This document shows, piece after piece, positions 2,921 through 54,288 of a stretch of 64,000 nt of DNA. Every line of letters begins with the position of its first letter. The first letter of the stretch is position 1. The position numbers and the translations under genes were made by a program. The DNA lies in the NCBI RefSeq assembly GCF_029227855.1, contig NZ_CP074356.1. One strand, written 5' to 3'. The notes under the pieces were generated by a model. The model ran no database searches. It saw nothing but the letters and a program-made list of their open reading frames with translations, and was not told the origin of the DNA. The DNA is from Escherichia coli (GTDB lineage Bacteria; Pseudomonadota; Gammaproteobacteria; Enterobacterales; Enterobacteriaceae).

Positions 2921-3835
2921 TTACTGCAGCAGGCTGGAAACCATGCTGGACATGCTGTTGGACTGTTTCAGCATGGTGATGCCGGTCTGCATCAGCACCT
3001 GTTGTTTGGTCATGTTGGACGCTTCCGTCGCGTAGTCGGTATCCATGATGTTACCGATAGCAACTTCGGTGTTGTCCTGCATGCTGGTCAGGTTATTAGC
3101 CGTGTCGTTCAGACGGTTGATAGACGCACCCAGTTTGGACTGGATCTGAGACACGTCATCCATCGCGGTAGAGATGCTGGTGATCATCTGGTTAGCCGAG
3201 CCAGACGCAGTCAGCTCAGTACCGCCAGAAACGCCTGCGGTGCCCGTGGTGTCAGCCTGATCCGCACTAAAGGAGCTGCTGATAGCAGAAAGATCAGTCA
3301 CCAGGGTATTCAGCTGGCTTGAAATATTCACGGTCATGGTGTCGGAAGATTCCGCGCCCACCTGGAAAGTTACCGCGCTCTGGAACAGACCGTCAGTACC
3401 GGTGTTGCTGGTGCCGGAAACACCGAACAGGTTGGTGCCGCCGTAAGTGGTGTTTTGCAGCATGTCAGACATCTGCTGGCCCAGTTCGTCGTATTCGTCC
3501 TGCATCGCCTGCAGGTCGTCGTCGCTGTAGGTGCCGTTCGCTGCCTGAGTTGACAGGTCTTTCATACGACCCAGCACGTCAGACATTTCGTCGAACATGC
3601 TGTCAGCGGTTTGCAGCATCGCGGTGGCATCATTGATGTTGCTCAGCGCCACCCCCATACCGCTGGACTGTGCTGTCAGACGGTTAGCAATTTGTTTGCC
3701 TGCGGCGTCATCGGCAGAAGAGTTAATCCGGTTACCTGTCGCCAGGCGTTCCATAGATGTAGACAGAGAAGAGCTGCTTTTGCTGATTGCATTAACGGCG
3801 GCCATTGAGGCGTTATTGGTGTTAATAGATAACAT
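2921..3835 (-). CDS. lafA: lateral-type flagellin (Flag-2 LafA), 304 aa
   Basis: ORF track; start placed at internal ATG giving MLSINTNNASMAAVNAI... (flagellin N-terminus) with AGGAG Shine-Dalgarno; ends ...SSLLQ; the longer track ORF (from 3901) is an upstream in-frame extension. Confidence 0.9.
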   Translation of the reverse strand: MLSINTNNASMAAVNAISKSSSSLSTSMERLATGNRINSSADDAAGKQIANRLTAQSSGMGVALSNINDATAMLQTADSMFDEMSDVLGRMKDLSTQAANGTYSDDDLQAMQDEYDELGQQMSDMLQNTTYGGTNLFGVSGTSNTGTDGLFQSAVTFQVGAESSDTMTVNISSQLNTLVTDLSAISSSFSADQADTTGTAGVSGGTELTASGSANQMITSISTAMDDVSQIQSKLGASINRLNDTANNLTSMQDNTEVAIGNIMDTDYATEASNMTKQQVLMQTGITMLKQSNSMSSMVSSLLQ

Positions 3836-4271
3836 GATACTGCTCCTTGGGATTAATCGTTTTCGTTTCGATACCCTGTAAAAACGACACCTCGGGAGCA
3901 AACTTAAAACCGCCGTTAAAATTTTTTCGCCACGTATTATCCGATGCCACTTTTAGCTAAAAAAAAACAGAGTTTAAATTCAGATAAAAAGATTATTAGC
4001 AATATCTGCCACATGGCCAGGTATCAAAATATGTCTTTATCAATTGCTTGATATAGTTAAGATTATCATCAATTACCGCGTTTTCTTATCAATGTACTGA
4101 TGCCAAAATTTACATTGCGTTGCAAATAGTACACATTTGGCTATTGTACCTGTCCTGTCATTTCGTTACATTTCCACGCTATATAGTGATTAAGAATAAT
4201 CTTATCACCATAAAATTATTAATTATCACGCAGAAAAATCATCTTCTCAGGGACGTATAAGACTGTGCTTT

Positions 4272-17809: not shown

Positions 17810-20281
17810 ATGCCAACACCAACCCTCATCAAAACACTCGCCACTCACCGCGAAAAACCGTTCGTCAGCGTCGTCACGCCCACATGGAACCGTAGCGCAT
17901 TCCTGCCGTACCTGCTCTATATGTACCGCTATCAGGATTACCCGGCAGACCGCCGCGAACTGGTCATCCTCGACGACTCGCCGCAAAGCCATCAACACAT
18001 CATCGACCGCCTGACCAATGGCACACCGGAAGCCTTTAACATCCGCTATATTCATCACCCGGAAAAACTGCCACTGGGCAAAAAACGCAACATGCTCAAC
18101 GAACTGGCGAGCGGCGAATACATCCTCTGCATGGACGATGACGACTACTACCCGGCAGATAAAATCTCTTACGCCATCGCCATGATGCAAAAACACCGGG
18201 CGCTCATCTCCGGTTCCGACCAGATCCCCATCTGGTACAGCCACATCAATCGCATCTTCCAAAGCCGCAGCTTTGGCTCACATAACATCCTCAACGGCAC
18301 CTTTTGCTATCACCGTAACTACCTGAAAAAGCACCGTTACGACGATGATTGTAATTTAGGCGAAGAGAAAAGTTTCACCAACAATTTCAGCGTTAACCCG
18401 CTACAACTGCCCGGCGAGCGCACGATTCTGTGTATCTCGCACAGTCACAACACCTTTGATAAAGATTTTATTCTCGGGGCTAGCACGCCAGTAAACGCGG
18501 CGCTTACGGATATCGTCCGCGATCCGCTGCTGCGCAATGCTTATCTGAGTCTGCATAACGCCACTCATCACCAGGCGATCGATCAGGTCGTACTGATCAA
18601 TCTGGATAAACGCCCGGATCGCTTACAGCAGATCCGTGAAGAACTCACATTGCTGTATATTCCGCCTGAGAAGATCACCCGCCTTGCCGCCAGTGAAAAT
18701 GAAAACGGTCAACGGGGTCGCCGCCAGTCACACTTGCAGGCGCTGCGCCTGGCGCAACAGCACGGCTGGCAAAACTACCTGCTGCTGGAAGATGACGCAG
18801 TTATTCTCAAGCAGGAGAAACATATTCAGGTACTGAACACGCTGCTCGCGAGCCTGGCGAAAATTCCCTGGCAGGTGATGATCCTTGGCGGCGAAATTTC
18901 GCAGGGAACGATGCTAAAAAGTTTGCCGGGGCTGGTGCACGCGCGGGACTGCCGCAAAGTGTGCGCTTATCTGGTGAACAGTCGCTACTACCCGCAACTG
19001 GCGCAGCAGATGAGCCACAATGAACACTCGCTGGAAGACGGCTGGCAGCCGCTGCTACGCGCCGACAAATGGCTGGCCTGTTACCCGAGCCTTAGTTATC
19101 AGCGACCGGGCTTTAGTGATATCGAGAAAAAAGTGACCGACAACATTGCTCACTATTTCAATAAGTTACCCGTTATCACAAAGCCATCCGCATTACCCAT
19201 CGCCGACACCATCGGCTTTTTTATGGAAACCTCCTTCCACTACGCGCTCTACCGCCCAATCATCACTGCTCTACAGGTGCAGGGGCAGAGCTGCACGCTG
19301 GTGATCAATGACCGCGTGTTTAAACCGTTTCTTGATGAGATGCTGGAAACACTGAAAAACATCGACGATCCGCAGCTTAAAGGAATGCGCTTATCTGAAA
19401 TGCAGGCACACGGTCAGCGGGTGAAATGCCTGGTCAGCCCCTACCACACGCCCGCGCTCAATGGCCTGGCAGCGGTGAACGTTCGCGCCATGTACGGCTT
19501 AGCCAAAGAGACGTGGAACCACGCCGACTGGAACCGTTTTTATCAACGCATTTTGTGTTACAGCCACTACAGCCAGCGGGCGCTGGCGCATTTCGGCAAT
19601 GCAAAAGCAGTCGGCAACCCGCGCTTCGACGCCTGGCATAACGGCACGTTTGCCCGCACTCTGCCGGAAAATATTCAACCCGATTCCCGTAAACCTACGG
19701 TGCTCTATGCCCCCACGTTTGGCGCATTAAGCTCCCTGCCCCACTGGGCAGAAAAATTAGGCCGCTTAAGTGGCAATGTGAATCTGATTTGCAAACTGCA
19801 CCACGGCACCTGCTCGCGCCCGGAAGAAGCGGCATCGCTGGCCCTGGCGCGCAGGCATTTAAAACAGCGCACCGACTCCGCCCGCCACACGCTGGCGCTG
19901 CTGGCAAAGGCCGATTACGTGCTGACCGATAACAGCGGCTTTATTTTCGATGCTATTCACGTTGATAAGCGGGTGATCCTGCTCGACTTTCCGGGCATGG
20001 CAGCGTTGCTCGACGGTGAGAAAAGTTACTCCACGCCGGAGAGCGCCGATCAGCAAATCCGCGAAATATTGCCGGTGGCTCATGATATGGCAGAGTTGCG
20101 TTACTTGTTGTCAGAGGCGTTTGACTGGGGGGCGGTGCAGGCGCGGCTTACGAAGATTCGCCATCACTATTGCGATGCGTTTATGGATGGCAAAGCGGGA
20201 GAACGGGCGGCGATGGTGATTGTGGAGGCGCTGGCGGACAAGGAATCGTCAGGGATATGTCGATATAATTCGATTTTTTAA
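17810..20281 (+). CDS. multidomain glycosyltransferase, about 823 aa: N-terminal GT2-like, central GT25-like, C-terminal CDP-glycerol glycerophosphotransferase (TagB/TagF-like)
   Basis: ORF track (17744-20281); start set at ATG 17810 (MPTPTLIK...). N-terminus VSVVTPTWNRSAFLP...LDDSP...CMDDDDYY (DXD motif); middle VVLINLDKRPDRLQQI...LLLEDDAVI; C-terminus TVLYAPTFG...KLHHGT...VLTDNSGFIFDAIHVDKRVI. Domain calls by eye, unverified. Confidence 0.7.
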   Translation: MPTPTLIKTLATHREKPFVSVVTPTWNRSAFLPYLLYMYRYQDYPADRRELVILDDSPQSHQHIIDRLTNGTPEAFNIRYIHHPEKLPLGKKRNMLNELASGEYILCMDDDDYYPADKISYAIAMMQKHRALISGSDQIPIWYSHINRIFQSRSFGSHNILNGTFCYHRNYLKKHRYDDDCNLGEEKSFTNNFSVNPLQLPGERTILCISHSHNTFDKDFILGASTPVNAALTDIVRDPLLRNAYLSLHNATHHQAIDQVVLINLDKRPDRLQQIREELTLLYIPPEKITRLAASENENGQRGRRQSHLQALRLAQQHGWQNYLLLEDDAVILKQEKHIQVLNTLLASLAKIPWQVMILGGEISQGTMLKSLPGLVHARDCRKVCAYLVNSRYYPQLAQQMSHNEHSLEDGWQPLLRADKWLACYPSLSYQRPGFSDIEKKVTDNIAHYFNKLPVITKPSALPIADTIGFFMETSFHYALYRPIITALQVQGQSCTLVINDRVFKPFLDEMLETLKNIDDPQLKGMRLSEMQAHGQRVKCLVSPYHTPALNGLAAVNVRAMYGLAKETWNHADWNRFYQRILCYSHYSQRALAHFGNAKAVGNPRFDAWHNGTFARTLPENIQPDSRKPTVLYAPTFGALSSLPHWAEKLGRLSGNVNLICKLHHGTCSRPEEAASLALARRHLKQRTDSARHTLALLAKADYVLTDNSGFIFDAIHVDKRVILLDFPGMAALLDGEKSYSTPESADQQIREILPVAHDMAELRYLLSEAFDWGAVQARLTKIRHHYCDAFMDGKAGERAAMVIVEALADKESSGICRYNSIF

Positions 20282-42120: not shown

Positions 42121-42143
42121 CAGGGAAAGATTACGAAAGCCCG
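42121..42143. repeat. 23-bp direct repeat, right copy
   Basis: cagggaaagattacgaaagcccg. Confidence 0.6.
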
Positions 42144-43263
42144 CTCCCCGCAAGGACTGACGCCAGATAGTTTCTGTCCATGGCTGCTTTTCGCATCTTA
42201 CGTCTTAACCCTGCCTTGAATACCTTATCATTCGTCAAAATATTAATAGCGATGTGCCGTATCCCTGAAAATAATTCTGCTGCATTTCCTCTTCTTATTT
42301 TGCAGTCGTCTTCATTCATTACCACGTCCAGACGCCAGTGCAGCTTATTCTCCACGTGCCAGTGGTTTCGGATTGCTGTGGCGAACTTCTCTGCGGTTAA
42401 ATCAGCAGAACTAATATAATATCTGACCGCCATTTCTGGCTCTTTCTTTTGTTCTGCTATTATTGACCGAAAGGAGACTGCCACGCATAATTTCTTCAGA
42501 CCTTTCCATTCAAACGTGAAATCAATAAGTTCATCAGGGACATCGCAAACAATGTGAAGACGGATTTCTTCTCTGCCGTGACTCTTTTCACTCATTGCGT
42601 AACTGTCATGCTCTGGATTATTTAATTCTTTCAGCGGAAATTCTCGAAGGCTTTATTTAGCCGCCCCTGGTTTCCTTTTACAGCGAATAAATAATCACCT
42701 CCCTGTTTTTGTATCTTCTCTGCAATATCTTTCTGGCAACCCATCGCATCAGTTGTGATGATTTTTCCTTTAATATCCAGCATGTTAAGAAGTTCTGGGA
42801 TAGCTGTAATTTCATTGGATTTCTCATCCGTCCTGATCTGTCCGATGACCAGACTGTGCATTGTTGAGAACGCACTAATGACATGAATCGCTCCCTTGCG
42901 GCGACTCTTGTCATAAGAATGCCGGAGTGTTTTTCCATCAATTGCGATGACGTCTTTATCATCTGAAGTATGGCAATCTCGCATCCAGTTAATAAAGCAC
43001 TCGTGAAATTTTGCAGGACTGATACAGGATACAACTCTGGCGATGGTATCGTGAACAGGAATACCATTTTAAAAATCACCGTATTGTTTTAAAAAATCGA
43101 GATGTGTTTCCCCAAAATCCTCTATATCTTCCCAACCTTCCGCACCCGAAATAACAGCACAAATAGTCAACAGTAGAATATCCGATAATTTATGTTCCAC
43201 TTTCCAGGCTTGTCTGTAATCGGGGATAATAGAAATATGCCCCATCAATTTTTTAAGTTCTAT
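42131..43263 (-). mobile_element. ISAs1-family (H-repeat) transposase gene, inactivated
   Basis: Track ORFs 42631-42984 and 42131-42595 are consecutive parts of an ISAs1/H-rpt transposase in different frames; hand translation of 43263-42985 gives the N-terminus with ATA in place of the first ATG (an in-frame Met codon remains at 43245-43243), and an in-frame TAA at 43071-43069. Confidence 0.8.
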
Positions 43264-43483: not shown

Positions 43484-43861
43484 TCACTCCTGACCAAAAT
43501 CTTTCCACACTAATGCATGAGACTTTGATTTATCACCCAAAAATTTACTTACATCTTTCCAAAGTAAAGAATTGCTATCGGTCGCAGTGACTATTGCCTC
43601 TATAAGCCCTGTAGCTACAACTGTGGCCAATTCATCATCAATCGAGACCATACCATCTTCGACATGTTTAAATATTTTTTCTCTTTCAATATCACCCATT
43701 TCATAAAAATTTTTTACAATCGTTTTTCCAATCTGAGAGAACAACATAACCACCGGTGGAGTTTCTGGATGCCAGTATTCATTAGCTAATGAGACTGTCT
43801 CAGACAAAACAGTGGAAAACGATGCCATTTTTTCTATATAATTAGCAATATATTGGTTCAT
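43484..43861 (-). CDS. putative immunity protein for the Rhs C-terminal toxin, 125 aa
   Basis: ORF track; small AT-rich ORF whose ATG overlaps the rhs stop codon; classic effector-immunity arrangement; family unknown. Confidence 0.5.
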   Translation of the reverse strand: MNQYIANYIEKMASFSTVLSETVSLANEYWHPETPPVVMLFSQIGKTIVKNFYEMGDIEREKIFKHVEDGMVSIDDELATVVATGLIEAIVTATDSNSLLWKDVSKFLGDKSKSHALVWKDFGQE

Positions 43862-46800
43862 TACTTGCCTCCCAAAGCATTCTGTAAATCCTGAAGAACG
43901 TTTTCTGCTGCTGCTCGATCCCCTGGAGATGCTGTTGGATTCTTATCCAACCAATCCTGTAAAGCCCTTGTATAATCCTGTGCTTTCAATACATGTCCTC
44001 TACCACCAACTTTTTCACCTGTGGCCAATTCATAACGAACAGCATCTGCTGTGCTTCCACTTCCTACTTTTGCATTTGGCCGATAAAGATCGTCTATAAT
44101 ATTTTTCAAATTTGAATCTGTAACGTCAGGTTTTCCCATCTTCTGTCGCAATTCATCTTTATACCGTTCATGCTGCATACGATCTCTTGCGCTATTCTCA
44201 TCTTCTGGTCCCCATCCTCCCGGGCTTCCCGTACTGCCACCACCCAGGCAGTTCTTCTCTTCCTCCGTCAAATCCTTCCCGACATTTGGATTCTCTTTTG
44301 ATGAATCATCATTTCCAAACACGCTGGAAAAAGCACCATAGGGATCTCGCCAGAATTCCATTTGACTTTGTGCATTTAATAATTCGGCTTCACCCTGCAT
44401 CTCCATACTTTTCTCAATCGCGTCCCCAACAGCCTCGCGATTGTTGTATATTATTATACCACCACCAATAACCACCGTACCGACTGCCGCACCGACTAAC
44501 ATCCCCGGAGGGCCTCCTACCGAACCGATCTCTGTACCTACTTCAGAACCAGTTCCCATGGCAGTTAATGCTCCTGCGCCCAACGCCGCACTTAATCCCA
44601 GCGGATCCAGCCGTTGCACCGGGTTCAGTGGATACGCATACAGGTTCCATCCCCCCTTCAGCCCAATCGGATCCTGGGTGATATACCTCCCCTGTAGCGG
44701 GTCATAGTACCGGTGACGGTTGTAGTACAGCCCCGACTCCTCATCATACTGCTGCCCCGGCAGACGGAGTGACTGTTGAAGGTGCTGCGTGCTTTCCTCT
44801 CCCAGCAGGTTTCCCCACTCGTCATACTCCCCGCGCCACGCCGTTTCCCCTTCCGGGCTGATAAGCGCCTGCGGCAGCCCACGGTGGTCACAGTGGTAAA
44901 GATGAAGTTTCCTCTCCGGGATGTATTCCGCCTCCAGTTGCGCCGCCATCTGTTCCGCCGTCAACCCACACTGTGCAAGCCACTGCTGGCTTTCTTCACT
45001 CACGCTGCCCTGCCGCAGTTCCCGCTCCAGCCTCCCCAGCATCACCGCCAGCTCCGCCGGTAGCGTCACACCCGTGTCCTCCTGCAACACCTCCGCCAGG
45101 CTACGGTGCCGCGCCTTCGCCTGTTCGCCATTCTCTGTTTCGATTCTCAGGAGCGGCGTGAAGCTCCCCGGCTGGTATACCGTCTGGATACGCGTGGTGT
45201 CGGTCTGTACCGTCGTCAGCCTGTCGCCGTCCCACCCGTACCAGGTCACCTCCGGTTTACGCGACAGCGACATCCACCCCGTCAGGTCACGCTCCCGCCG
45301 CCACACCCGTTTTCCCGTCCGGCGGCCCAGCGGGTCATAGAGGTAGCGGCTCTCCACCTGTGGCTCGCCGTGCTGTATCCGCGTGTAGAACACCAGGCGG
45401 TGCTGGCTGTCGTAATGGTAGTGGTGCGTCCGCTCGTCGTGCATCCGTATCACCCCTTCCGGGATACGGTCCGTCTTCTCCGCCAGCCTGCCGTATTCAT
45501 CGTAGCGGTAGACATAGTGCGCATCTTCCGTGATGCGGTTATCCGGCCACGCCGTGAGGGTGCTGTCCGGGTGCAGTTCCGGGTCCGGCAGCCGGTTTCC
45601 TGCCGGGTCCGTCGCATACGGGATATCAATGTCCAGGTTCGCTGCCGTGGTGTGGACGCCCGTCAGCCTTCCCGTGTCGCTGTAACGGTACTCCCGGCTC
45701 TCCTGCGGGCCGCTGATGCGAATTAGCTGTCCGTTGTCGTTCCAGTCGTAGTCACGGTCAAGCTGCGGAAGGTTCAGGTGCCTGCTCCGGAGCTGGCCGC
45801 TGGTATTCCAGGCGGTGGCAAGCTCATATGCCTCCCCGCCGAAGCTGCGGGCCGTCTCACGGTGCAGCCGGTCCCGCGTGTACTCGACCAGTGGCGTACC
45901 ACCCAGCTTCATTCCCGCAAGATAACCGCTGCCATACGTCAGCCACTCCACCGGCGGCAGACCGTCCAGCTCCTGACGGGTCGCCAGCCCCTGTTCGCTG
46001 TACGCGTGCTTCGTCTCATGCTCCCACAGCATCTCCCCCGTCTCCGGGTTCTCCACCGTCTGCCGTTCGCCCGTCAGGCGGCCTTTATCGTCGTGGCCGT
46101 AGTGGACCGCCACACGGTGGCCTTCGCTGATATGGCTGATTTCTGTCAGCCAGCCGTGCTCATCATACTGCCACTGCTCCGCCGGGTCGCCGTTCACCGT
46201 CCGGTGCGTGATGCGGTCCGACGCATCGTAATGCCAGAGGGTGATAAGTCCCTCGTCTTCACTGTGGACAAGCTGCCCTGTGGCGCTGTACCGGTAACGC
46301 TGCGTCCTGCCGTCAAAGCCGCGCTGCTCCGTCAGCCTGTCCACCGGGTCATACCGGAACGTGGACTGGCTGCCGTTCTCGTTGGTCAGCACGGTGATGC
46401 GCCCGGCAGCGTCATACCCCATGCTGCGCGTCAGACCGCCTTCCGTCACACTCACCGGACGCCCGCGTTTATCATATTCGATGGTGCTGCGTTTACCGTC
46501 CGGTGATATCGTTGCTGTCAGGTCGCCTGCGGCGCTGTACTCATAACGGGTTTCACGCCCCTGCGCATCCTTCTGACTGACCAGTTGGCCTCGCGGGTTA
46601 TAACTGCTGTAAGTGCTGATGCCTTCCTCCCGGTGAACGGCGATTTGTTGACCGTACCGGTCATACTCATACCGCGTCATGTACCCCGAGCAGTCCGTGA
46701 AGGCCCGAAGCTGACCGTACCGGTTTCGCGTTATTCTCCGCGTCACCCCGATTCCGTCTTCCACCGCGCCGGGCAGGCTACTGCGGGGGGAGTCATAAAA

Positions 46801-48360
46801 CCAGCGCGTAATGTTACCGTTGCGCGAGATCTCTTCTGCCAGTCGGCCCTGACGGTCATATTTCCGGCTGCTGCGTAAACCATCCGGATATGTCACTGAA
46901 GTCAGTTGCAACTGGCTGTTGTAACCATACCGTACCGTCCTGCCGTCCGGCAGTATCACTGAAGTCAGCTTTCCAGACGCCATATGCAGCCGGTACTCCG
47001 TCCGCCGTCCTGCCGCATCCGTCTGCGCCTTCAGCCTCCCCGCCTCATCATACTCGCTGCGGGTGATGCTCCCGTCGGCATGCTCCTTCTTCACCACACG
47101 CTTCAGGCCACCCCCGCCTTCCGTGTACAGCACCTCCCGCCGGTTCAGGCTGTCCGTGATGGTCACACGGTCCTGCCCGTACTCAAAGCGGTAGTCCAGC
47201 CCCTCCGGGTTGACCTGCTCCGTCACCCGCCCGGTATCATCATACCGGTAGCGGCTCTCCGGCCTCCCTGCATAATGGTGCGCCACCATCCGCCCGGCGT
47301 GCTCCGCATCATAAGTAAACCCGCGCACCTGCGTCCCGCTGCGGTCATACACCGCCCGCAGTTCTCCGCTGGCCGTGTACGTATAGCGCGCCAGCGGCGC
47401 AGTCGGCTGTTCATCCGGGTATGCCGGGTCGTGTGTCAGCCACACCGCCTCCAGCCGGATACCGTTATCGGCACCGTATTCTGTACCGGCGGGCAGCGTA
47501 TCGGGGAAAACCTGAGAAGAGGAAACAGAACGGGGACCGGCTGGAGAAGATAAAGAAGAGGCGCGCTGTTTACGGAAGGCTTCCGCCCGCTGCGCCTGCG
47601 TGCTCAGCGCCAGGTGAAAACAGCGGCCCGCGCCGTCCGTCACCCCCGTCACCGCACCCGCCACGTCACCCTCTGCCGCCCGGTGGAAGGCCAGCGTCCG
47701 CCCGAAGCCGTCCACCACGCCCGTCAGCACCCGGTATGCGGGCGGCTCCGGCGGCAGCACCTCGTCCGCCCCCGGCACCCGCTCCGGCCAGCCGAGCACC
47801 AGCCACTGCCCGGTTGTGCTGGCAGCCATCATATAGATGTGTGGACTCAGACGGACCGCTTCCGGCAACGCCCGCCAGAGCCGCGCAAGCGGGTGGCCTT
47901 TGTGCTGTTTCAGCACCCCGCACCGCGCCAGCCAGAACGACTCGCTGCGGCTGTAGCTTATCTCGCCGGGAAACAGGGGTTCAAAGTGAATGCTCCTGCC
48001 GCCGCTGTCGTTGAGTATCAGGCCTTCATCGCGTATCTGTAAGCGGATATCGAAGGGGGCTTTCCAGCCGGGACCAAACACCCCCACCGGCGCGGGCGTC
48101 CTGGTCCGGTAGCTGCTGTAGGCGCGGAAAAGAACAAACGGCAGCGGGCCGGACAGTGCCAGGTCGGTTTCAGCAGGCAGCACCTTCGCTCCCAGCAGCG
48201 GGTTTACCGGATTGCCATATTTCGGCGTGGCTTCCCCTGTGGGACACACCGAGCAGGCCACACCGGTTGGCGCACCTATCAGCACCCCTGCTGAACCCTG
48301 CACAATATCCAGTCCCTTGCGGGTCATGTCACCCTGCCGCGCCGCCGGTTTTCCACCCAT
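43861..48360 (-). CDS. rhs: PAAR-domain Rhs (YD-repeat) polymorphic toxin, 1499 aa, with variable C-terminal toxin domain
   Basis: ORF track; N-terminal PAAR motif ([11 protein letters not shown]...), long YD-repeat core, DPLGL core-end motif at 44593-44607 followed by a ~243-aa C-terminal domain of lower GC. Confidence 0.9.
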
Positions 48361-48435
48361 GAATCAATTCCTTCTGCTTTTAATATGGTTTATCTGGTCA
48401 CTGCACCAGTTCCGTTTTAATTTTTTGCACCTGAC

Positions 48436-50577
48436 TCAAAATTGCCGCATATCCGGCATTCCGGGGGGTAAATCTTTCGGCACAGGCGCATCCGGTACAG
48501 GTTGTGTGGCACCACAGTTCCAGTTAATCACCGGCGCATCACCGTTCACATCCGACTCTCCTTCCAGATGAATGTGCGTACCATTGAGAAATATGCTTCC
48601 GTCCTTCGTCAGCACCAACCTTGCCTTACCGCAGCAGAGTTCCAGATGCTCACCGGCAGAATAAACTGCTGTTTGTCCGGTGTTTTCCTTCATCGTCTTG
48701 CCCACCGAGAAGGTGACGTTATTCCCTACATTGACGCTGTAGCCCATTCCCACCATCAGTGATTTATGCAGCCCTACCTGTGAGGACTGCAACAACGCCA
48801 CCGAGGTATTCATGATGCCGCCTACCGTCGTCTGGTAAGCCACGCCCACCGTCAGCGCACGAATGATCCCCACCTTTTCAACCTGGTTTGAACCCACTTT
48901 GACAATCTGGTTGCTGCCTACCGTTTCCACCTGGTTGACACCAACCGTCTGTATCTGATTAACGCCAATGTTCTGGATCTGGTTATTGGTAACGGTGATC
49001 GCCTGGTTGTTACCTATTTTTTCGGCATGGTTGTTTATCACATCAGTGGTACGGTTATTCAGCACCTCGGTGTTCATGTTCTTCTGCGCGTGGATGTAGA
49101 CCTGTTCTTTCCCTGTCGCATCGTCAAACTTCAGTTCATTAAACCCGCTGCCCTTATAGGTTTTTGAACGAATGGTCATCTGCGTCTTTGTTCCCGGCAG
49201 GCTGCCGGGGGTGCGGTTTTCCTGGTGGTAGGTGCGCCCCATAATAATCGGCTGGTCCGGATCGCCGTTGAGGAAGTCCACAATGACTTCCTGACCCACA
49301 CGCGGTATCGCCAGGTTGCCAAAGCCGGTGCCTGCCCACGCCTGTGCCACACGGATCCAGCATGAACTGTCCTGGTTTGACGGGTTATAGCGGTCCCAGT
49401 TAAATTTCACCCGCACGCGGCCATGTTCATCACAGAAGATTTCTTCTCCTGCCGGTCCCGTCACGACGGCGCTCTGCGGGCCGTCCACCAGCGGTTTCAG
49501 CAACGGCTGTGGCCGCCATGTTCTGTCTGCCGGTATTACCGCAAAGTGGTTATTCAGCGTGGTACCTGAACCCCTGCGTCCCGGCACCGCCTGCGGCTGC
49601 TCGCCGTGCAGTTCACTTGCCACCACCTGCCATTCCCGGTTCAGGTTCGCCTGCGGATGCCCCGTCAGCGCAATTCGCCGTCCCGGCCATATCTCCGGCG
49701 AACGGCTTGTTCCGCGCGCCACTTCTGCGTTGTTTCGCCAGCCATCCATCTGCCAGCAGGCAAAGTTCTGCCCGTGGGCACCCTTGAAACGTCCGGGGTA
49801 GTCATACACTTCATACTGTGTGCGCTGGTAATCCTGGTGCTGGCCTTCCTGATCAAAACGCCCTGCCCAGCCGGGTCGTTTAAAGGTGTAGTCTTTGGTC
49901 ACCACGGAAGATGGGCGGATTTGTGCGCTGTAGAGGAACTGGCTGATGCATAGGGTGCTCACCTCGGTACGGGTGTTCGGATTCCAGGGGATCTCAAAGG
50001 ACTCCGGCAGATAACGCACGGTGTCGCACAGGACCAGGCTCTGGTCGGTACTTTTTTGCGCGTGCTCCTCATAAAAGAAGATGCCTTCCTCCGCCGCCAT
50101 CCGGCACAGGAAATCGTAATCGGTTTCGCCGTACTGGACACAAAACTCACGGGAAGGATGCGGCTCGCTGAACAGCGGACTCCACTCGGTCACCCCGTTT
50201 TCTTTCAGGATCGTCGCGAGTATGCTTTCGATGTCCTCATTCTGGAAGATACGGAAGTTCTGGCGCAGCCCTGTGCGCCACAGCGGTGGGCACACCTTCA
50301 TGCTGTACAGCATCTGGTTTTTGTCGTTCTCCCCCAGTTCAAACCAGGTCACCACACCTTTCACCCGGCGCTGTACGTCATCGCCCTGCCATACCGTCAG
50401 GTAGGCCATTTTGTCCAGCACCTGCGCAAATTCAAGGGAGAGAAACTGCTGGCTGACCAGAGAGAGATCGAGGGAAAAGAGCGAAGAGAGTGACTGGTTC
50501 AGATGAAAGGAGACCACCGCAAACGCGTCCGGTGGCAGGCCGTCCACTTCCAGCGTGAAACGTAATCCGGTTGACAT
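48436..50577 (-). CDS. vgrG: T6SS spike protein VgrG (TssI)
   Basis: ORF track, 713 aa; gp27/gp5-like sequence and beta-helix repeats (…VGSNQIVKVGSNQVEKVG…). Confidence 0.9.
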   Translation of the reverse strand: MSTGLRFTLEVDGLPPDAFAVVSFHLNQSLSSLFSLDLSLVSQQFLSLEFAQVLDKMAYLTVWQGDDVQRRVKGVVTWFELGENDKNQMLYSMKVCPPLWRTGLRQNFRIFQNEDIESILATILKENGVTEWSPLFSEPHPSREFCVQYGETDYDFLCRMAAEEGIFFYEEHAQKSTDQSLVLCDTVRYLPESFEIPWNPNTRTEVSTLCISQFLYSAQIRPSSVVTKDYTFKRPGWAGRFDQEGQHQDYQRTQYEVYDYPGRFKGAHGQNFACWQMDGWRNNAEVARGTSRSPEIWPGRRIALTGHPQANLNREWQVVASELHGEQPQAVPGRRGSGTTLNNHFAVIPADRTWRPQPLLKPLVDGPQSAVVTGPAGEEIFCDEHGRVRVKFNWDRYNPSNQDSSCWIRVAQAWAGTGFGNLAIPRVGQEVIVDFLNGDPDQPIIMGRTYHQENRTPGSLPGTKTQMTIRSKTYKGSGFNELKFDDATGKEQVYIHAQKNMNTEVLNNRTTDVINNHAEKIGNNQAITVTNNQIQNIGVNQIQTVGVNQVETVGSNQIVKVGSNQVEKVGIIRALTVGVAYQTTVGGIMNTSVALLQSSQVGLHKSLMVGMGYSVNVGNNVTFSVGKTMKENTGQTAVYSAGEHLELCCGKARLVLTKDGSIFLNGTHIHLEGESDVNGDAPVINWNCGATQPVPDAPVPKDLPPGMPDMRQF

Positions 50578-50746
50578 AGCAACCTCCGGGTTTAAGGAAA
50601 AACAGACAGTTCGCTGTTAAAGCGGCTGTAACAGTACAGTGTTACGCTTGCGTTCAGGCACGCTACCGCCGAAGTTTCCGGCATCCGCCATCTCCCGTGA
50701 ACGTAACCCCTTACTGACAACCTTTCTTTTTACGGCGTAATACAAA

Positions 50747-50778
50747 AACAGCATCCGGCCTAATAGCCGGATGCTGTT
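50747..50778 (-). terminator. Rho-independent terminator downstream of hcp
   Basis: 13-bp perfect inverted repeat aacagcatccggc / gccggatgctgtt with loop ctaata; on the minus strand it is followed by a T-rich run. Confidence 0.7.
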
Positions 50779-50786
50779 GGCTTAAC

Positions 50787-51305
50787 TTATGCTTCCAGCG
50801 GTGCGCGCCAGTCGTCGGCACCGGAGGTGCCAGACTTGACGTGTTCCCACTCTATTTTGCGGTAGGCCAGTGAAACTTCGAGCAACTGGGTGAACTCGCG
50901 TTTCGCCGGATCCTGGCAATGCGGCATATGCAGTTTCATATCGACAATCGTCGAATCGGTCAGGCGGGTGGTGAAATAATGCTCCTGTTTGCCTTCCACA
51001 GAGGTACGCCACCAGTGAAGTTCAGTGGTTGGCAGCATTTCGCCGGAGGCCAGTGCGTTGTACATCAGCGGAACAGCTTTGTTCAGCGCCACGGTAAAAA
51101 TGAACGGCTTGTGAGCACGCTGACCCGCAGGCTGGCCGGACTGAGGATCGGTCGGGACAGTAACGTTATGCAGGAATTCCTGCACCAGCATCTCGTCTTC
51201 GTGCCCCTGCACATAGATGTTGCCGACAGAATCAGCGGTAAATGCACCTGCAGTAATATTTCCCTGGGTCTGACCAGTGATGGAGATATAACACGGTGTT
51301 GGCAT
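50787..51305 (-). CDS. hcp: T6SS tube protein Hcp (TssD)
   Basis: ORF track, 172 aa, MPTPCYISITGQTQGNITAGAF... Confidence 0.9.
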   Translation of the reverse strand: MPTPCYISITGQTQGNITAGAFTADSVGNIYVQGHEDEMLVQEFLHNVTVPTDPQSGQPAGQRAHKPFIFTVALNKAVPLMYNALASGEMLPTTELHWWRTSVEGKQEHYFTTRLTDSTIVDMKLHMPHCQDPAKREFTQLLEVSLAYRKIEWEHVKSGTSGADDWRAPLEA

Positions 51306-52001
51306 TTGTAAACTCCTTGTTAACGTGGTTAATTACTACTTACAATGACCTGCCGTTAATCCCAGACAGGCAGATGCAGCTCACTTCACGGAACCGCATC
51401 ATTTTTCAGTATTTTTTACATACAAACCGAGCTAGAATTTACGGTTGTCGTAAAAACTATTTTTAAAATCATTAAATCTCTTATTCAGCAATAAGTTAAT
51501 AATATATATCTGGATAACCACACCCAACTATTCAAAGTCCGTATTGCCTCCATAAAATGGCCAAAGCTGAATCATGAATAAATATTGTATTTATCCTTTC
51601 TGAATTATCATTTTGATAATTTTTGAGATATTCCTTAAAAATACCCACTTAATCAATCACAAAACAAATATATAAACAAGCAATCATCAGATTAGCTTAT
51701 GTTTAATGAAATTATTTTATAATTCAATAAGTTACACAAAGTCTCTGTATTTAAATTATTGCCATAATACACCTGACGCGAATTGCACAGGTTCACACAA
51801 TCTATTTAACGCTTGCAGAATACCCCTCTTTACGATCGATAAAAAGTCCTTTTCTTATTTATTTTGAAGCGTAGAATGCGGGGTGATGAAGGAGTGGTGA
51901 TTTTATTTTCACCGCCATTATGGCGGCATTGCCGATATTTTTTTGCGGTACAAATATGCCGTGTTCATGGCCTGTACGAGATAACATGACGGATCACTTT
52001 T
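51306..52001. promoter_or_regulatory. AT-rich divergent control region between hcp and tssB
   Basis: About 700 bp, strongly AT-rich, between divergently transcribed hcp and tssB; GATC sites at 51835 and 51991; specific promoter elements not resolved. Confidence 0.4.
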
Positions 52002-52502
52002 ATGAGCAAAAAATTTGAAGGCAGCGTCGCGCCTCGCGAGCGTATTAATATATCGTATGTCCCAAAAACAGATGGCCAGACGGCTGAAGTTGAACTTCCG
52101 CTTAACATGCTCGTTGTCGGCGATACCGGAAATACGCAGGAAACATCCCCACTGGATGAACGTCAGGCAGTTTCCGTTAACAAGCACAATTTCGGTGCAG
52201 TGATGGCTGAAGCAGCCATTGGCCTCAATTTTACTGTCCCCGCCACGCTGAAGGGAAGCACAACAGACGATGAACTGAATGTGGCGCTGAATATCAAATC
52301 ACTGGATGATTTTTCACCAGATAGCGTGGCCCGGCAGGTTCCGGAAGTGAATAAATTGCTGGAACTGCGTGAAGCACTGACTGCACTGAAGGGGCCGATG
52401 GGTAACCTTCCGGCATTCCGTACCCAGCTCCAGGCATTGCTGGAAAATGAAGAGTCCCGCGAGCAGTTGCTCAAAGAAATCGGCCAGGTGAGCAATAAAT
52501 AA
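52002..52502 (+). CDS. tssB: T6SS sheath small subunit TssB (VipA)
   Basis: ORF track, 166 aa, MSKKFEGSVAPRERINISYVP... Confidence 0.9.
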   Translation: MSKKFEGSVAPRERINISYVPKTDGQTAEVELPLNMLVVGDTGNTQETSPLDERQAVSVNKHNFGAVMAEAAIGLNFTVPATLKGSTTDDELNVALNIKSLDDFSPDSVARQVPEVNKLLELREALTALKGPMGNLPAFRTQLQALLENEESREQLLKEIGQVSNK

Positions 52503-52537
52503 CCACCACTATTTCATTAAACAGGGGTTATCCAGGC

Positions 52538-52762
52538 ATGACGGCACACAAAAATATCTCCGGGACATACCACCTCTCTGTTGCAGACATTCTGCAGGTG
52601 GTTTACCAGGTATGTTTCAGCCCGTCCGTTGAAATCAACCAGGATGGTGTGGCTGCGCTGATTACAACACTGGATCGCCGTATCAGTGATCTATTGGATG
52701 AGATTATCCATTTTTGTGAGTTTCAGCAGAGCGCGTCGCACTGGCAGCGCGTACTTCACTGA
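52538..52762 (+). CDS. 74-aa ORF resembling the N-terminal segment of TssC (possible gene fragment or small paralog)
   Basis: ORF track; ...ITTLDRRISDLLDEIIHFCEFQQSASHWQRV parallels tssC ...IADIDERISRQMDVIIHAPAFQQVESFWRSL; weak Shine-Dalgarno; coding status uncertain. Confidence 0.3.
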   Translation: MTAHKNISGTYHLSVADILQVVYQVCFSPSVEINQDGVAALITTLDRRISDLLDEIIHFCEFQQSASHWQRVLH

Positions 52763-52812
52763 TGGCGAAAAGCCGGTTTCAGAAACACAGCTAAAACAGA
52801 AGGATTTTCAGT

Positions 52813-54288
52813 ATGTCTTTACAGGAAGAGGAACTCGTTTCCAGTCATGCCGGGCAGCCTGAGCAGGCATCGTCGCTGCTTGATCAAATCATGGCACAGA
52901 CCCGTATTCAGCCCGGTTCGGAAGGTTATGACGTTGCCCGCCAGGGTGTGACAGCCTTTATTGCCAGCATCCTGCAATCCACTGCATCTGCCGAACCGGT
53001 CAATAAACTGGCCGTGGACAGCATGATTGCAGATATTGATGAACGCATCAGCCGCCAGATGGATGTCATCATCCATGCGCCTGCCTTTCAGCAGGTCGAG
53101 TCGTTCTGGCGCTCACTGAAAACCATGGTGGATCGCGTTGATTTCCGTGAAAACATCAAGGTCAACGTGCTTCATGTCACCAAGCAGGAACTTCTGGAAG
53201 ACTTTGAGTTTGCGCCAGAAATTATTCAGTCCGGATTTTATAAGCACGTTTATTCGTCCGGTTTCGGACAGTTTGGCGGTGAACCCATCGCTGCCGTGCT
53301 GGGCGCTTATGAGTTCAAAAATACCGCGCCTGACATGAAACTGCTGCAATACGTCAGTGCCGTGGGCGCAATGGCGCACGCACCGTTCCTGTCCTCCGTT
53401 TCCCCGGAGTTTATGGGGCTGAACTCGTGGACCGAACTGCCTAATATCAAAGATCTTTATGCCATCTTTGAAGGTCCGGCCTACACCAAATGGCGCGCCC
53501 TGCGAGACTCGGAAGATTCGCGCTATTTAGGGCTTACGGCACCCCGCTTCCTGCTTCGCCAGCCTTATTCACCAACAGATAACCCTATTAAGAACTTTAA
53601 CTATCACGAAGATGTCAGCCGGAACCACGAAGATTATCTGTGGGGTAATACGGCCTGGATGCTGGCGTGCAATGTCGCAGACAGTTTTGCCAAATACCGC
53701 TGGTGTCCAAATATCATCGGTCCGCAAAGCGGCGGCGCAGTGAAAGATCTGCCGGTGCATCTGTTCGAAACGATGGGTCAGATTCAGGCCAAAATCCCAA
53801 CCGAGGTGCTGGTCACCGATCGCCGCGAATTTGAACTGGCTGAAGAGGGTTTTATCACCCTTACCATGCGTAAAGACTCTGATAATGCAGCCTTTTTCTC
53901 TGCAAACTCTGTACAAAAACCGAAGCACTTTCCGGGCAAAGACGCAGAAACCAACTATAAGTTGGGTACGCAGCTTCCTTATCTCTTCATCATCAATCGG
54001 TTAGCGCACTACATCAAGGTGTTGCAGCGTGAACAACTGGGGTCATGGAAAGAAAGGAGCGACTTAGAGAGGGAGCTTAATACCTGGATCCGTCAGTATG
54101 TTGCCGACCAGGAAAACCCGCCTGCGGACGTGCGCAGCCGCAAGCCTCTGCGTGCTGCCAGAGTTGAGGTTATGGATGTGGAAGGCGAACCCGGCTGGTA
54201 CCAGGTCGCGCTGAGCGTGCGGCCCCATTTTAAATTTATGGGGGCAAACTTTGAGCTTTCCCTGGTTGGCCGGTTAGACAGGGAGTAA
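52813..54288 (+). CDS. tssC: T6SS sheath large subunit TssC (VipB)
   Basis: ORF track, 491 aa. Confidence 0.9.
   Translation: MSLQEEELVSSHAGQPEQASSLLDQIMAQTRIQPGSEGYDVARQGVTAFIASILQSTASAEPVNKLAVDSMIADIDERISRQMDVIIHAPAFQQVESFWRSLKTMVDRVDFRENIKVNVLHVTKQELLEDFEFAPEIIQSGFYKHVYSSGFGQFGGEPIAAVLGAYEFKNTAPDMKLLQYVSAVGAMAHAPFLSSVSPEFMGLNSWTELPNIKDLYAIFEGPAYTKWRALRDSEDSRYLGLTAPRFLLRQPYSPTDNPIKNFNYHEDVSRNHEDYLWGNTAWMLACNVADSFAKYRWCPNIIGPQSGGAVKDLPVHLFETMGQIQAKIPTEVLVTDRREFELAEEGFITLTMRKDSDNAAFFSANSVQKPKHFPGKDAETNYKLGTQLPYLFIINRLAHYIKVLQREQLGSWKERSDLERELNTWIRQYVADQENPPADVRSRKPLRAARVEVMDVEGEPGWYQVALSVRPHFKFMGANFELSLVGRLDRE

Follow-up and report, generated by a model that had tools for sequence, protein, structure and literature searches.

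Genes at the locus

The stretch of Escherichia coli DNA analysed here (64 kb in length and hereafter called the window) contains the E. coli T6SS-2 chromosomal island, which adjoins yafV-ivy-fadE, and in this region it is 100 % identical to E. coli strain 7/2. The genes of the island run in two opposite directions. The one way, we find tssB-tssC-tssE-tssF and other structural genes, and the other way hcp-vgrG-rhs together with a small open reading frame (ORF). The latter group is of key importance here and consists of the following genes:

50787..51305, minus strand: hcp (tssD), the tube protein, 172 aa (Pfam T6SS_HCP, 5e-31)
48436..50577, minus strand: vgrG (tssI), 713 aa, the first gene past the spacer (matches to Phage_GPD, Gp5_trimer_C and Phage_base_V)
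43861..48360, minus strand: rhs core protein / effector, 1499 aa
43484..43861, minus strand: small ORF after rhs, a putative immunity gene (coordinates mapped from the strain 7/2 annotation, locus 19540-19917)

Downstream of the hcp-vgrG spacer, vgrG, rhs and the putative immunity gene form a unit of 7.1 kb. Directly after the rhs/small-ORF pair lies a frameshifted pseudogene of an ISAs1-family transposase (window about 42131-43263, mapped from strain 7/2, L001 20138-21270). A decayed copy of the island can be found in E. coli 23CRST024 (L005, NZ_AP045783.1, 2819-4446), where hcp is truncated and continues into an rhs fragment. The junction in this strain keeps 37 nt of the spacer core, and both tssA and tssM are pseudogenes.

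Structure and position of the hairpin

The first features met on leaving hcp are a hairpin and a T-rich tract, both of which lie on the same strand as the gene itself:

50747..50778, minus strand: predicted terminator hairpin with a 14-pair stem (13 Watson-Crick pairs and one G-U pair) and the loop ATTA (fold, shuffles, covariation and the EHEC orthologue, h3R region I)
50739..50746, minus strand: T-rich tract TTTGTATT directly 3' of the stem, or TGTTTTTGTATT together with the TGTT of the stem

Read on the minus strand from 50778 to 50747, the hairpin is AACAGCATCCGGCT-ATTA-GGCCGGATGCTGTT, in which 13 Watson-Crick pairs and one closing U-G pair surround a loop of 4 nt. It starts 8 nt past the hcp stop codon, the position expected of a terminator, and ends 169 nt before the ATG of vgrG. 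Its stem is GC-rich (8 of the 14 pairs are G-C) and its loop is short, within the 3-8 nt that are typical of terminators. What follows 3' of the stem is TTTTTGTATT / TTTGTATTAC, or UGUUUUUGUAUU when the stem's own TGTT is counted, and with 6 T in the 8 positions of TTTGTATT it qualifies as the U-rich tract of a terminator. Read on the plus strand, the palindrome has GGCTTAAC after it and no T-run, and the signal would thus act in one direction only. Taken together, these features support the prediction of a canonical intrinsic terminator. An earlier note on this DNA had described a perfect 13-bp stem with a T-run between the hcp stop and the vgrG start, with both genes on the minus strand, and this description is correct in every detail.

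The hairpin is also exceptional in its stability and length. As RNA, it has a minimum free energy of -26 kcal/mol versus a mean of -10.9 for its shuffles (z = -5.79), and none of 200 shuffles was as stable. It is the longest perfect hairpin of the whole window, block shuffles of which contained 0.36 stems of at least 10 bp and zero of at least 13 bp. The second-longest perfect hairpin (2851-2876) has an 11-bp stem, ACAACACCGCC TGCA GGCGGTGTTGT, and is located between two minus-strand ORFs, with a REP-like sequence, GCCGGGTAAGGCGTTTACGCCGCATCGGCA, beside it at 2883-2912. An Rfam scan of positions 48000-53000 at E-values up to 10 gave two chance-level matches (E = 5.7 and 6.9), both far under the gathering scores.

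Conservation among relatives

The homologous hairpin could be aligned in 24 Enterobacteriaceae loci from about 12 genera, among which are Escherichia, Citrobacter, Yokenella, Buttiauxella, Atlantibacter and Superficieibacter, as well as Lelliottia, Trabulsiella, Phytobacter, Pseudocitrobacter and Enterobacter. In this alignment 92.8 % of the cells of the stem are paired, and double (compensatory) changes occur in 9 of the 15 pairs. Not one of 500 shuffles reached any of the five covariation measures, and in a control in which the partner columns were slid, pairing fell to 34-56 %. The variation, which is compensated, is found in the inner stem, and the outer stem (ACAGCAT / ATGCTGT) is conserved for the most part. 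Such covariation across genera shows that selection acts on the hairpin as an RNA structure. Moreover, nearly all of the 24 loci have a T-rich run (consensus TTTTTGTA) behind the stem, as judged by eye, which argues for termination and not for mRNA protection alone. The structure and position of the hairpin, the covariation of its stem and the conservation of the T-run are all direct observations.

The same kind of compensation can be seen within the species. E. coli 118UI and Combat2C1 (L003 and L004, about 4020-4190) have a diverged variant of the T6SS in the same place on the chromosome, and their hairpin has two compensated stem changes (G-C to A-U and G-C to U-A) next to an unchanged T-run. 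About 40 % of complete E. coli genomes have the same hairpin, with one locus per genome in 2195 genomes. The second "place" at which it matches in each genome most likely reflects a match of the palindrome to itself on the opposite strand. With one locus per genome, the hairpin is not a dispersed repeat, and it lacks the many scattered copies that characterize a REP or BIME repeat.

For a broader view, we turn to a comparison set of 80 hcp loci (one genome per species), in which Hcp is 81-100 % identical to that of the window. A hairpin was counted as terminator-like if it had a folding energy of -10 kcal/mol or better, a T-rich tail and an end within 110 nt of the hcp stop. By this measure 62 of the 80 loci have such a hairpin after hcp, versus about 13 (13.3) in dinucleotide shuffles, 6 on the reverse complement and 0 within the last 130 nt of the coding sequence. 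A terminator-like hairpin right after hcp is therefore the rule among the 80 loci with an Hcp at least 81 % identical to that of the window.

The orthologous hairpin of EHEC

The hairpin is already known and of an ordinary kind, as it is the orthologue of region I of h3R. The latter is the name given to the hcp3-vgrG3 intergenic region of EHEC O157:H7 EDL933 by Vazquez-Lopez et al. (Microbiol Spectr, April 2026; PMC13141884), and region I was described as a 32-base hairpin of 14 pairs at +8 of the hcp3 3' UTR (PMC13141884). In our alignment, the hcp-vgrG spacers of EDL933 and the window are identical at 226 of 232 nt (97 %), with 6 differences. Both lie in the same island (tssB / hcp-vgrG-rhs by yafV-ivy-fadE), and the stem, the T-run and the distance that separates the hairpin from the end of hcp are the same in both. 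The single difference in the hairpin is a loop base, as the loop is ATTA in the window and ATCA in EDL933 and most E. coli. The downstream rhs cargo, on the other hand, differs between the two.

A series of experiments has been reported for EHEC (all in PMC13141884). In the wild type, reverse transcription PCR across the hcp3-vgrG3 junction was negative, and hence no co-transcript was seen. When the divergent promoter was swapped, vgrG3 mRNA rose on induction, less than hcp3 mRNA did, and at the protein level Hcp3 was detected but VgrG3 and PAAR were not. Deletion of region I (31 bp) led to more read-through RNA at the junction, brought hcp3 mRNA down to 6 % and halved Hcp3. Likewise, in a gfp-h3R-mCherry reporter without region I, GFP (upstream) fell to half and mCherry (downstream) rose twofold. 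In size, deletion of the hairpin alone amounted to only about a 2-fold change, and on its own it gave only a small rise in VgrG3, whereas clear amounts of VgrG3 needed a 170-bp deletion of regions I and II. In the authors' model, hcp3 and vgrG3 are separate operons, the latter with its own promoter in the spacer (PMC13141884). Comparative evidence, RfaH and ops are not mentioned in that paper.

The earlier note had proposed that the terminator keeps hcp expression above that of the vgrG-rhs-immunity genes, and this proposal finds support in the EHEC orthologue through the junction RNA, the excess of hcp3 over vgrG3 mRNA and the reporter. Two points go beyond it. First, the hairpin stabilizes hcp mRNA as well, so that part of the Hcp surplus stems from stabilization. 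Since deletion of the hairpin in EHEC shows both effects, we take stabilization to be a second function and not an alternative one. Second, the hairpin is not the sole barrier in the spacer; the other element is an ops site inside a conserved block.

The ops site and its conserved surroundings

Between the hairpin and vgrG, three nested features can be distinguished:

50659..50670, minus strand: exact RfaH ops consensus GGCGGTAGCGTG on the sense strand (the sole match in the window, with 0.13 expected)
50633..50719, minus strand: conserved spacer block of ~90 nt, far better conserved than its flanks (alignments and covariance-model matches)
50655..50696, minus strand: near-invariant 42-nt core of the block, GGGAGATGGCGGATGCCGGAAACTTCGGCGGTAGCGTGCCTG

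The ops (operon polarity suppressor) element has a 12-nt consensus, GGCGGTAGnnTG, and recruits the anti-terminator RfaH (PMC9562583; bioRxiv 10.1101/2025.02.08.637259). The site in the window is an exact match to this consensus and is separated from the hairpin by 76 nt and from the vgrG ATG by 81 nt. It lies on the same strand as hcp and vgrG and ahead of the 7.1-kb unit, in the position of an untranslated leader element that would be transcribed.

Exact ops sites were found in 17 of the 80 hcp loci, and sites with at most one mismatch in 20. They are positioned about +115 to +133 after the hcp stop, except in L028 (+332) and L073 (one mismatch, +264). The site is always behind the hairpin and never on the reverse strand, and it occurs once elsewhere in 400 kb. 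The variation between genera sits at the two N positions of the consensus. In E. coli 118UI and Combat2C1, as well as in the variant L010, the last G of ops is replaced by A (GGCGGTAGCGTA). This position is said to matter for pausing.

The presence of ops also sheds light on the second part of the EHEC region. As ops is located at +117 of the 209-nt spacer, the 170-bp deletion of regions I and II must have included it. Judging from the sequence, the inhibitory "region II" of EHEC thus contains a perfect RfaH ops site.

Searched for with a covariance model (R1, 83 sources), the surrounding block turned up in about 21 of the 80 loci and in every case directly behind the hairpin of hcp. In three of them (L020, L023 and L032, from Lelliottia and Citrobacter werkmanii; about 3020-3200), the terminator and the ops block are followed by small ORFs of unknown function and not by vgrG. 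With the block after hcp even where vgrG is not next, the module appears to travel with the hcp side, and the point at which cargo is swapped would lie after the module.

We considered other explanations for the conservation of the block, of which a structured RNA or riboswitch-like leader is the most obvious. Its covariation is no better than that of shuffles (1 pair with a double change, and 292 of 500 shuffles as high), its fold energy gives z = +0.4 versus shuffles, and Lelliottia keeps the core alone, without the long-range stem. We therefore prefer to read the block as ops plus flanking sequence conservation. CsrA binding at GGA motifs was considered as well, and the GGA of the first loop is not conserved. 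An ORF of 45 aa (50617..50754, minus strand), probably the annotated EDL933_0238, has its start inside the hairpin and extends across the ops core. Buttiauxella brennerae lacks its ATG, and Buttiauxella A111 has a 2-nt indel in it. As the reading frame is not conserved, we reject it as coding and regard it as most likely a spurious gene call. Inspection of the spacer by eye suggested no sigma-54, LexA, CpxR or OmpR sites.

RfaH and ops in other T6SS clusters

RfaH has been connected to T6SS genes before. Taillefer, Desjardins and Cascales (bioRxiv 2025, 10.1101/2025.02.08.637259) described a consensus ops1 between hcp and clpV in the Sci-1 cluster of EAEC, where mutation of ops1 or rfaH abolishes downstream, but not upstream, transcription. 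According to the same preprint, several enterobacteria have similar sites behind hcp, and ops elements are present in the EDL933 cluster as well. In addition, Hustmyer et al. found an RfaH ChIP signal at the T6SS loci of CFT073 lacking hns and stpA (PMC9765446). At the window locus, too, ops probably recruits RfaH, by analogy with these systems.

The Sci-1 spacer of EAEC 042 (L088, NC_017626.1, 24180-24309) also has a terminator, which the preprint describing ops1 (bioRxiv 10.1101/2025.02.08.637259) does not mention. It consists of a 10-bp GC-rich hairpin followed by ATTTTTATTTTTT (-19.7 kcal/mol, z = -4.5). The order of elements is the same as in the window, namely the hcp stop, 8 nt, the hairpin with its T-run, about 95 nt, GGCGGTAGCGTGCCTGA and the next gene, and GGCGGTAGCGTGCCTGA is identical to the window over 17 nt. 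Upstream of ops, GGGTTACG is present in both spacers. Otherwise the two loci differ, as Sci-1 is another T6SS cluster with another gene order and clpV downstream, its hairpin is unrelated in sequence, and it lacks the remainder of the conserved block. The order of terminator and then ops after hcp is hence found in at least two differently organized E. coli T6SS clusters, T6SS-2 (in the window) and EAEC Sci-1.

Proposed mechanism and alternatives

We consider it likely that a Rho-independent attenuating terminator, combined with mRNA stabilization, acts at the hcp 3' end and that RfaH is then loaded at ops for the vgrG-rhs-immunity genes. In this scheme, most polymerases from the H-NS-silenced divergent promoter of tssB/hcp would stop at the hairpin, with release at the T-run, and yield a short hcp mRNA, which the 3' hairpin would shield from 3' exonucleases. 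Termination and protection together would ensure that Hcp, of which each tube takes hundreds of copies, is made in large surplus over VgrG, Rhs and the immunity protein, of which a firing takes only a few. Polymerases that pass the hairpin, or that set out from an unmapped promoter within the 76 nt behind it, would meet ops and pause there. RfaH would probably load at this point and make them processive over the 7.1-kb unit and resistant to Rho, H-NS and pausing. As ops lies behind the terminator, RfaH could not weaken the terminator that sets the Hcp surplus.

Termination at the hairpin would be partial. This is suggested by the EHEC vgrG3 mRNA, which follows the promoter upstream of hcp3, by a spacer devoid of sigma-70-like sites in our scan (see below) and by the same order in Sci-1, where read-through is needed. 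Somewhat more tentatively, we put forward the possibility that the terminator makes up one conserved two-step module ("attenuate, then license") with the ops site that lies 76 nt further on. In this module, the ratio of Hcp to cargo would be set by the terminator on polymerase that is still unmodified, and RfaH would be loaded on the read-through fraction only, to take it through the long vgrG-rhs unit with its sensitivity to H-NS and Rho. One EHEC result counts against the full mechanism: plasmid constructs without the ops-containing segment raised VgrG3 and did not lower it (PMC13141884).

If the two-step module holds, the failure of promoter swapping and hns deletion to yield VgrG3 and Rhs in EHEC would find its explanation in RfaH as the missing factor. 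The ops site in region II would then offer a directly testable explanation of why the T6SS-2 cargo genes of EHEC cannot be switched on in the laboratory. The order of terminator and then ops after hcp is the one modestly new point, since both the EHEC paper and the EAEC preprint leave the two elements unlinked. The hairpin alone is an ordinary terminator that follows textbook operon logic, to which the covariation, its generality (62 of 80 loci) and the ops site in region II are our additions.

The main competitor of this mechanism, which we hold to be rather unlikely, is the published EHEC model, in which the hairpin is a full-stop terminator without any role for read-through and vgrG-rhs is an independent operon with its own promoter in the spacer. 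The negative junction PCR in wild-type EHEC agrees with this model, and promoter-prediction programs place a promoter in region II (PMC13141884). Our own consensus scan of the minus strand from 50577 to 50747, however, revealed no sigma-70-like site. The rise of vgrG3 mRNA on induction of the swapped promoter, which lies upstream of hcp3, also speaks against complete separation of the two genes, as does EAEC Sci-1, where the terminator and ops occur in this order within a unit whose downstream genes need ops1 and rfaH. Furthermore, since ops must be transcribed, a promoter in the spacer would have only the 76 nt ahead of ops as its possible location.

Less probable still is that the hairpin serves only as a 3' protective stem-loop, a decay barrier past which transcription continues, with processing and protection building up hcp mRNA. 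This reading draws on the drop of hcp3 mRNA to 6 % after deletion of region I and on T6SS4 of Y. pseudotuberculosis. There, as in the window, a GC-rich hairpin lies directly after hcp, and hcp mRNA is much more abundant than that of its neighbours. Mutation of the hcp4 stem-loop lowered hcp4 mRNA only and left downstream transcripts unchanged, and the authors interpreted it as a 3' protective loop (PMC12503267). With downstream transcripts unchanged in the mutant, the Y. pseudotuberculosis element acts as a stabilizer and not as a terminator. In EHEC, by contrast, loss of the hairpin gave more junction RNA and a doubled downstream reporter, and the T-run that follows the stem in the aligned loci (by eye) would be needless for a pure stabilizer.

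It is highly improbable that the palindrome acts at the level of DNA instead of RNA, be it as a REP-like repeat, as the scar of a mobile element or as an operator bound by a protein. Although GCCGGATGC resembles the start of E. coli REP sequences, there is one copy in the window and one locus per genome in the 2195 E. coli genomes, and the stem changes in sequence yet stays paired, including by G-U pairs that work only in the RNA of this strand.

The attenuating terminator with ops behind it, our preferred reading, fits a wider pattern. Hairpins between cistrons, be they attenuating terminators or decay barriers, set unequal mRNA levels for subunits that are needed in different amounts. The puf intercistronic stem-loop (cited in PMC12503267) is one such case, as an analogy of principle only and without any sequence relationship to the window hairpin. 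Terminator-like hairpins after hcp also occur in Photobacterium, Aeromonas, Providencia, Dickeya and Halomonas, with hairpin sequences that are unrelated to the one in the window.
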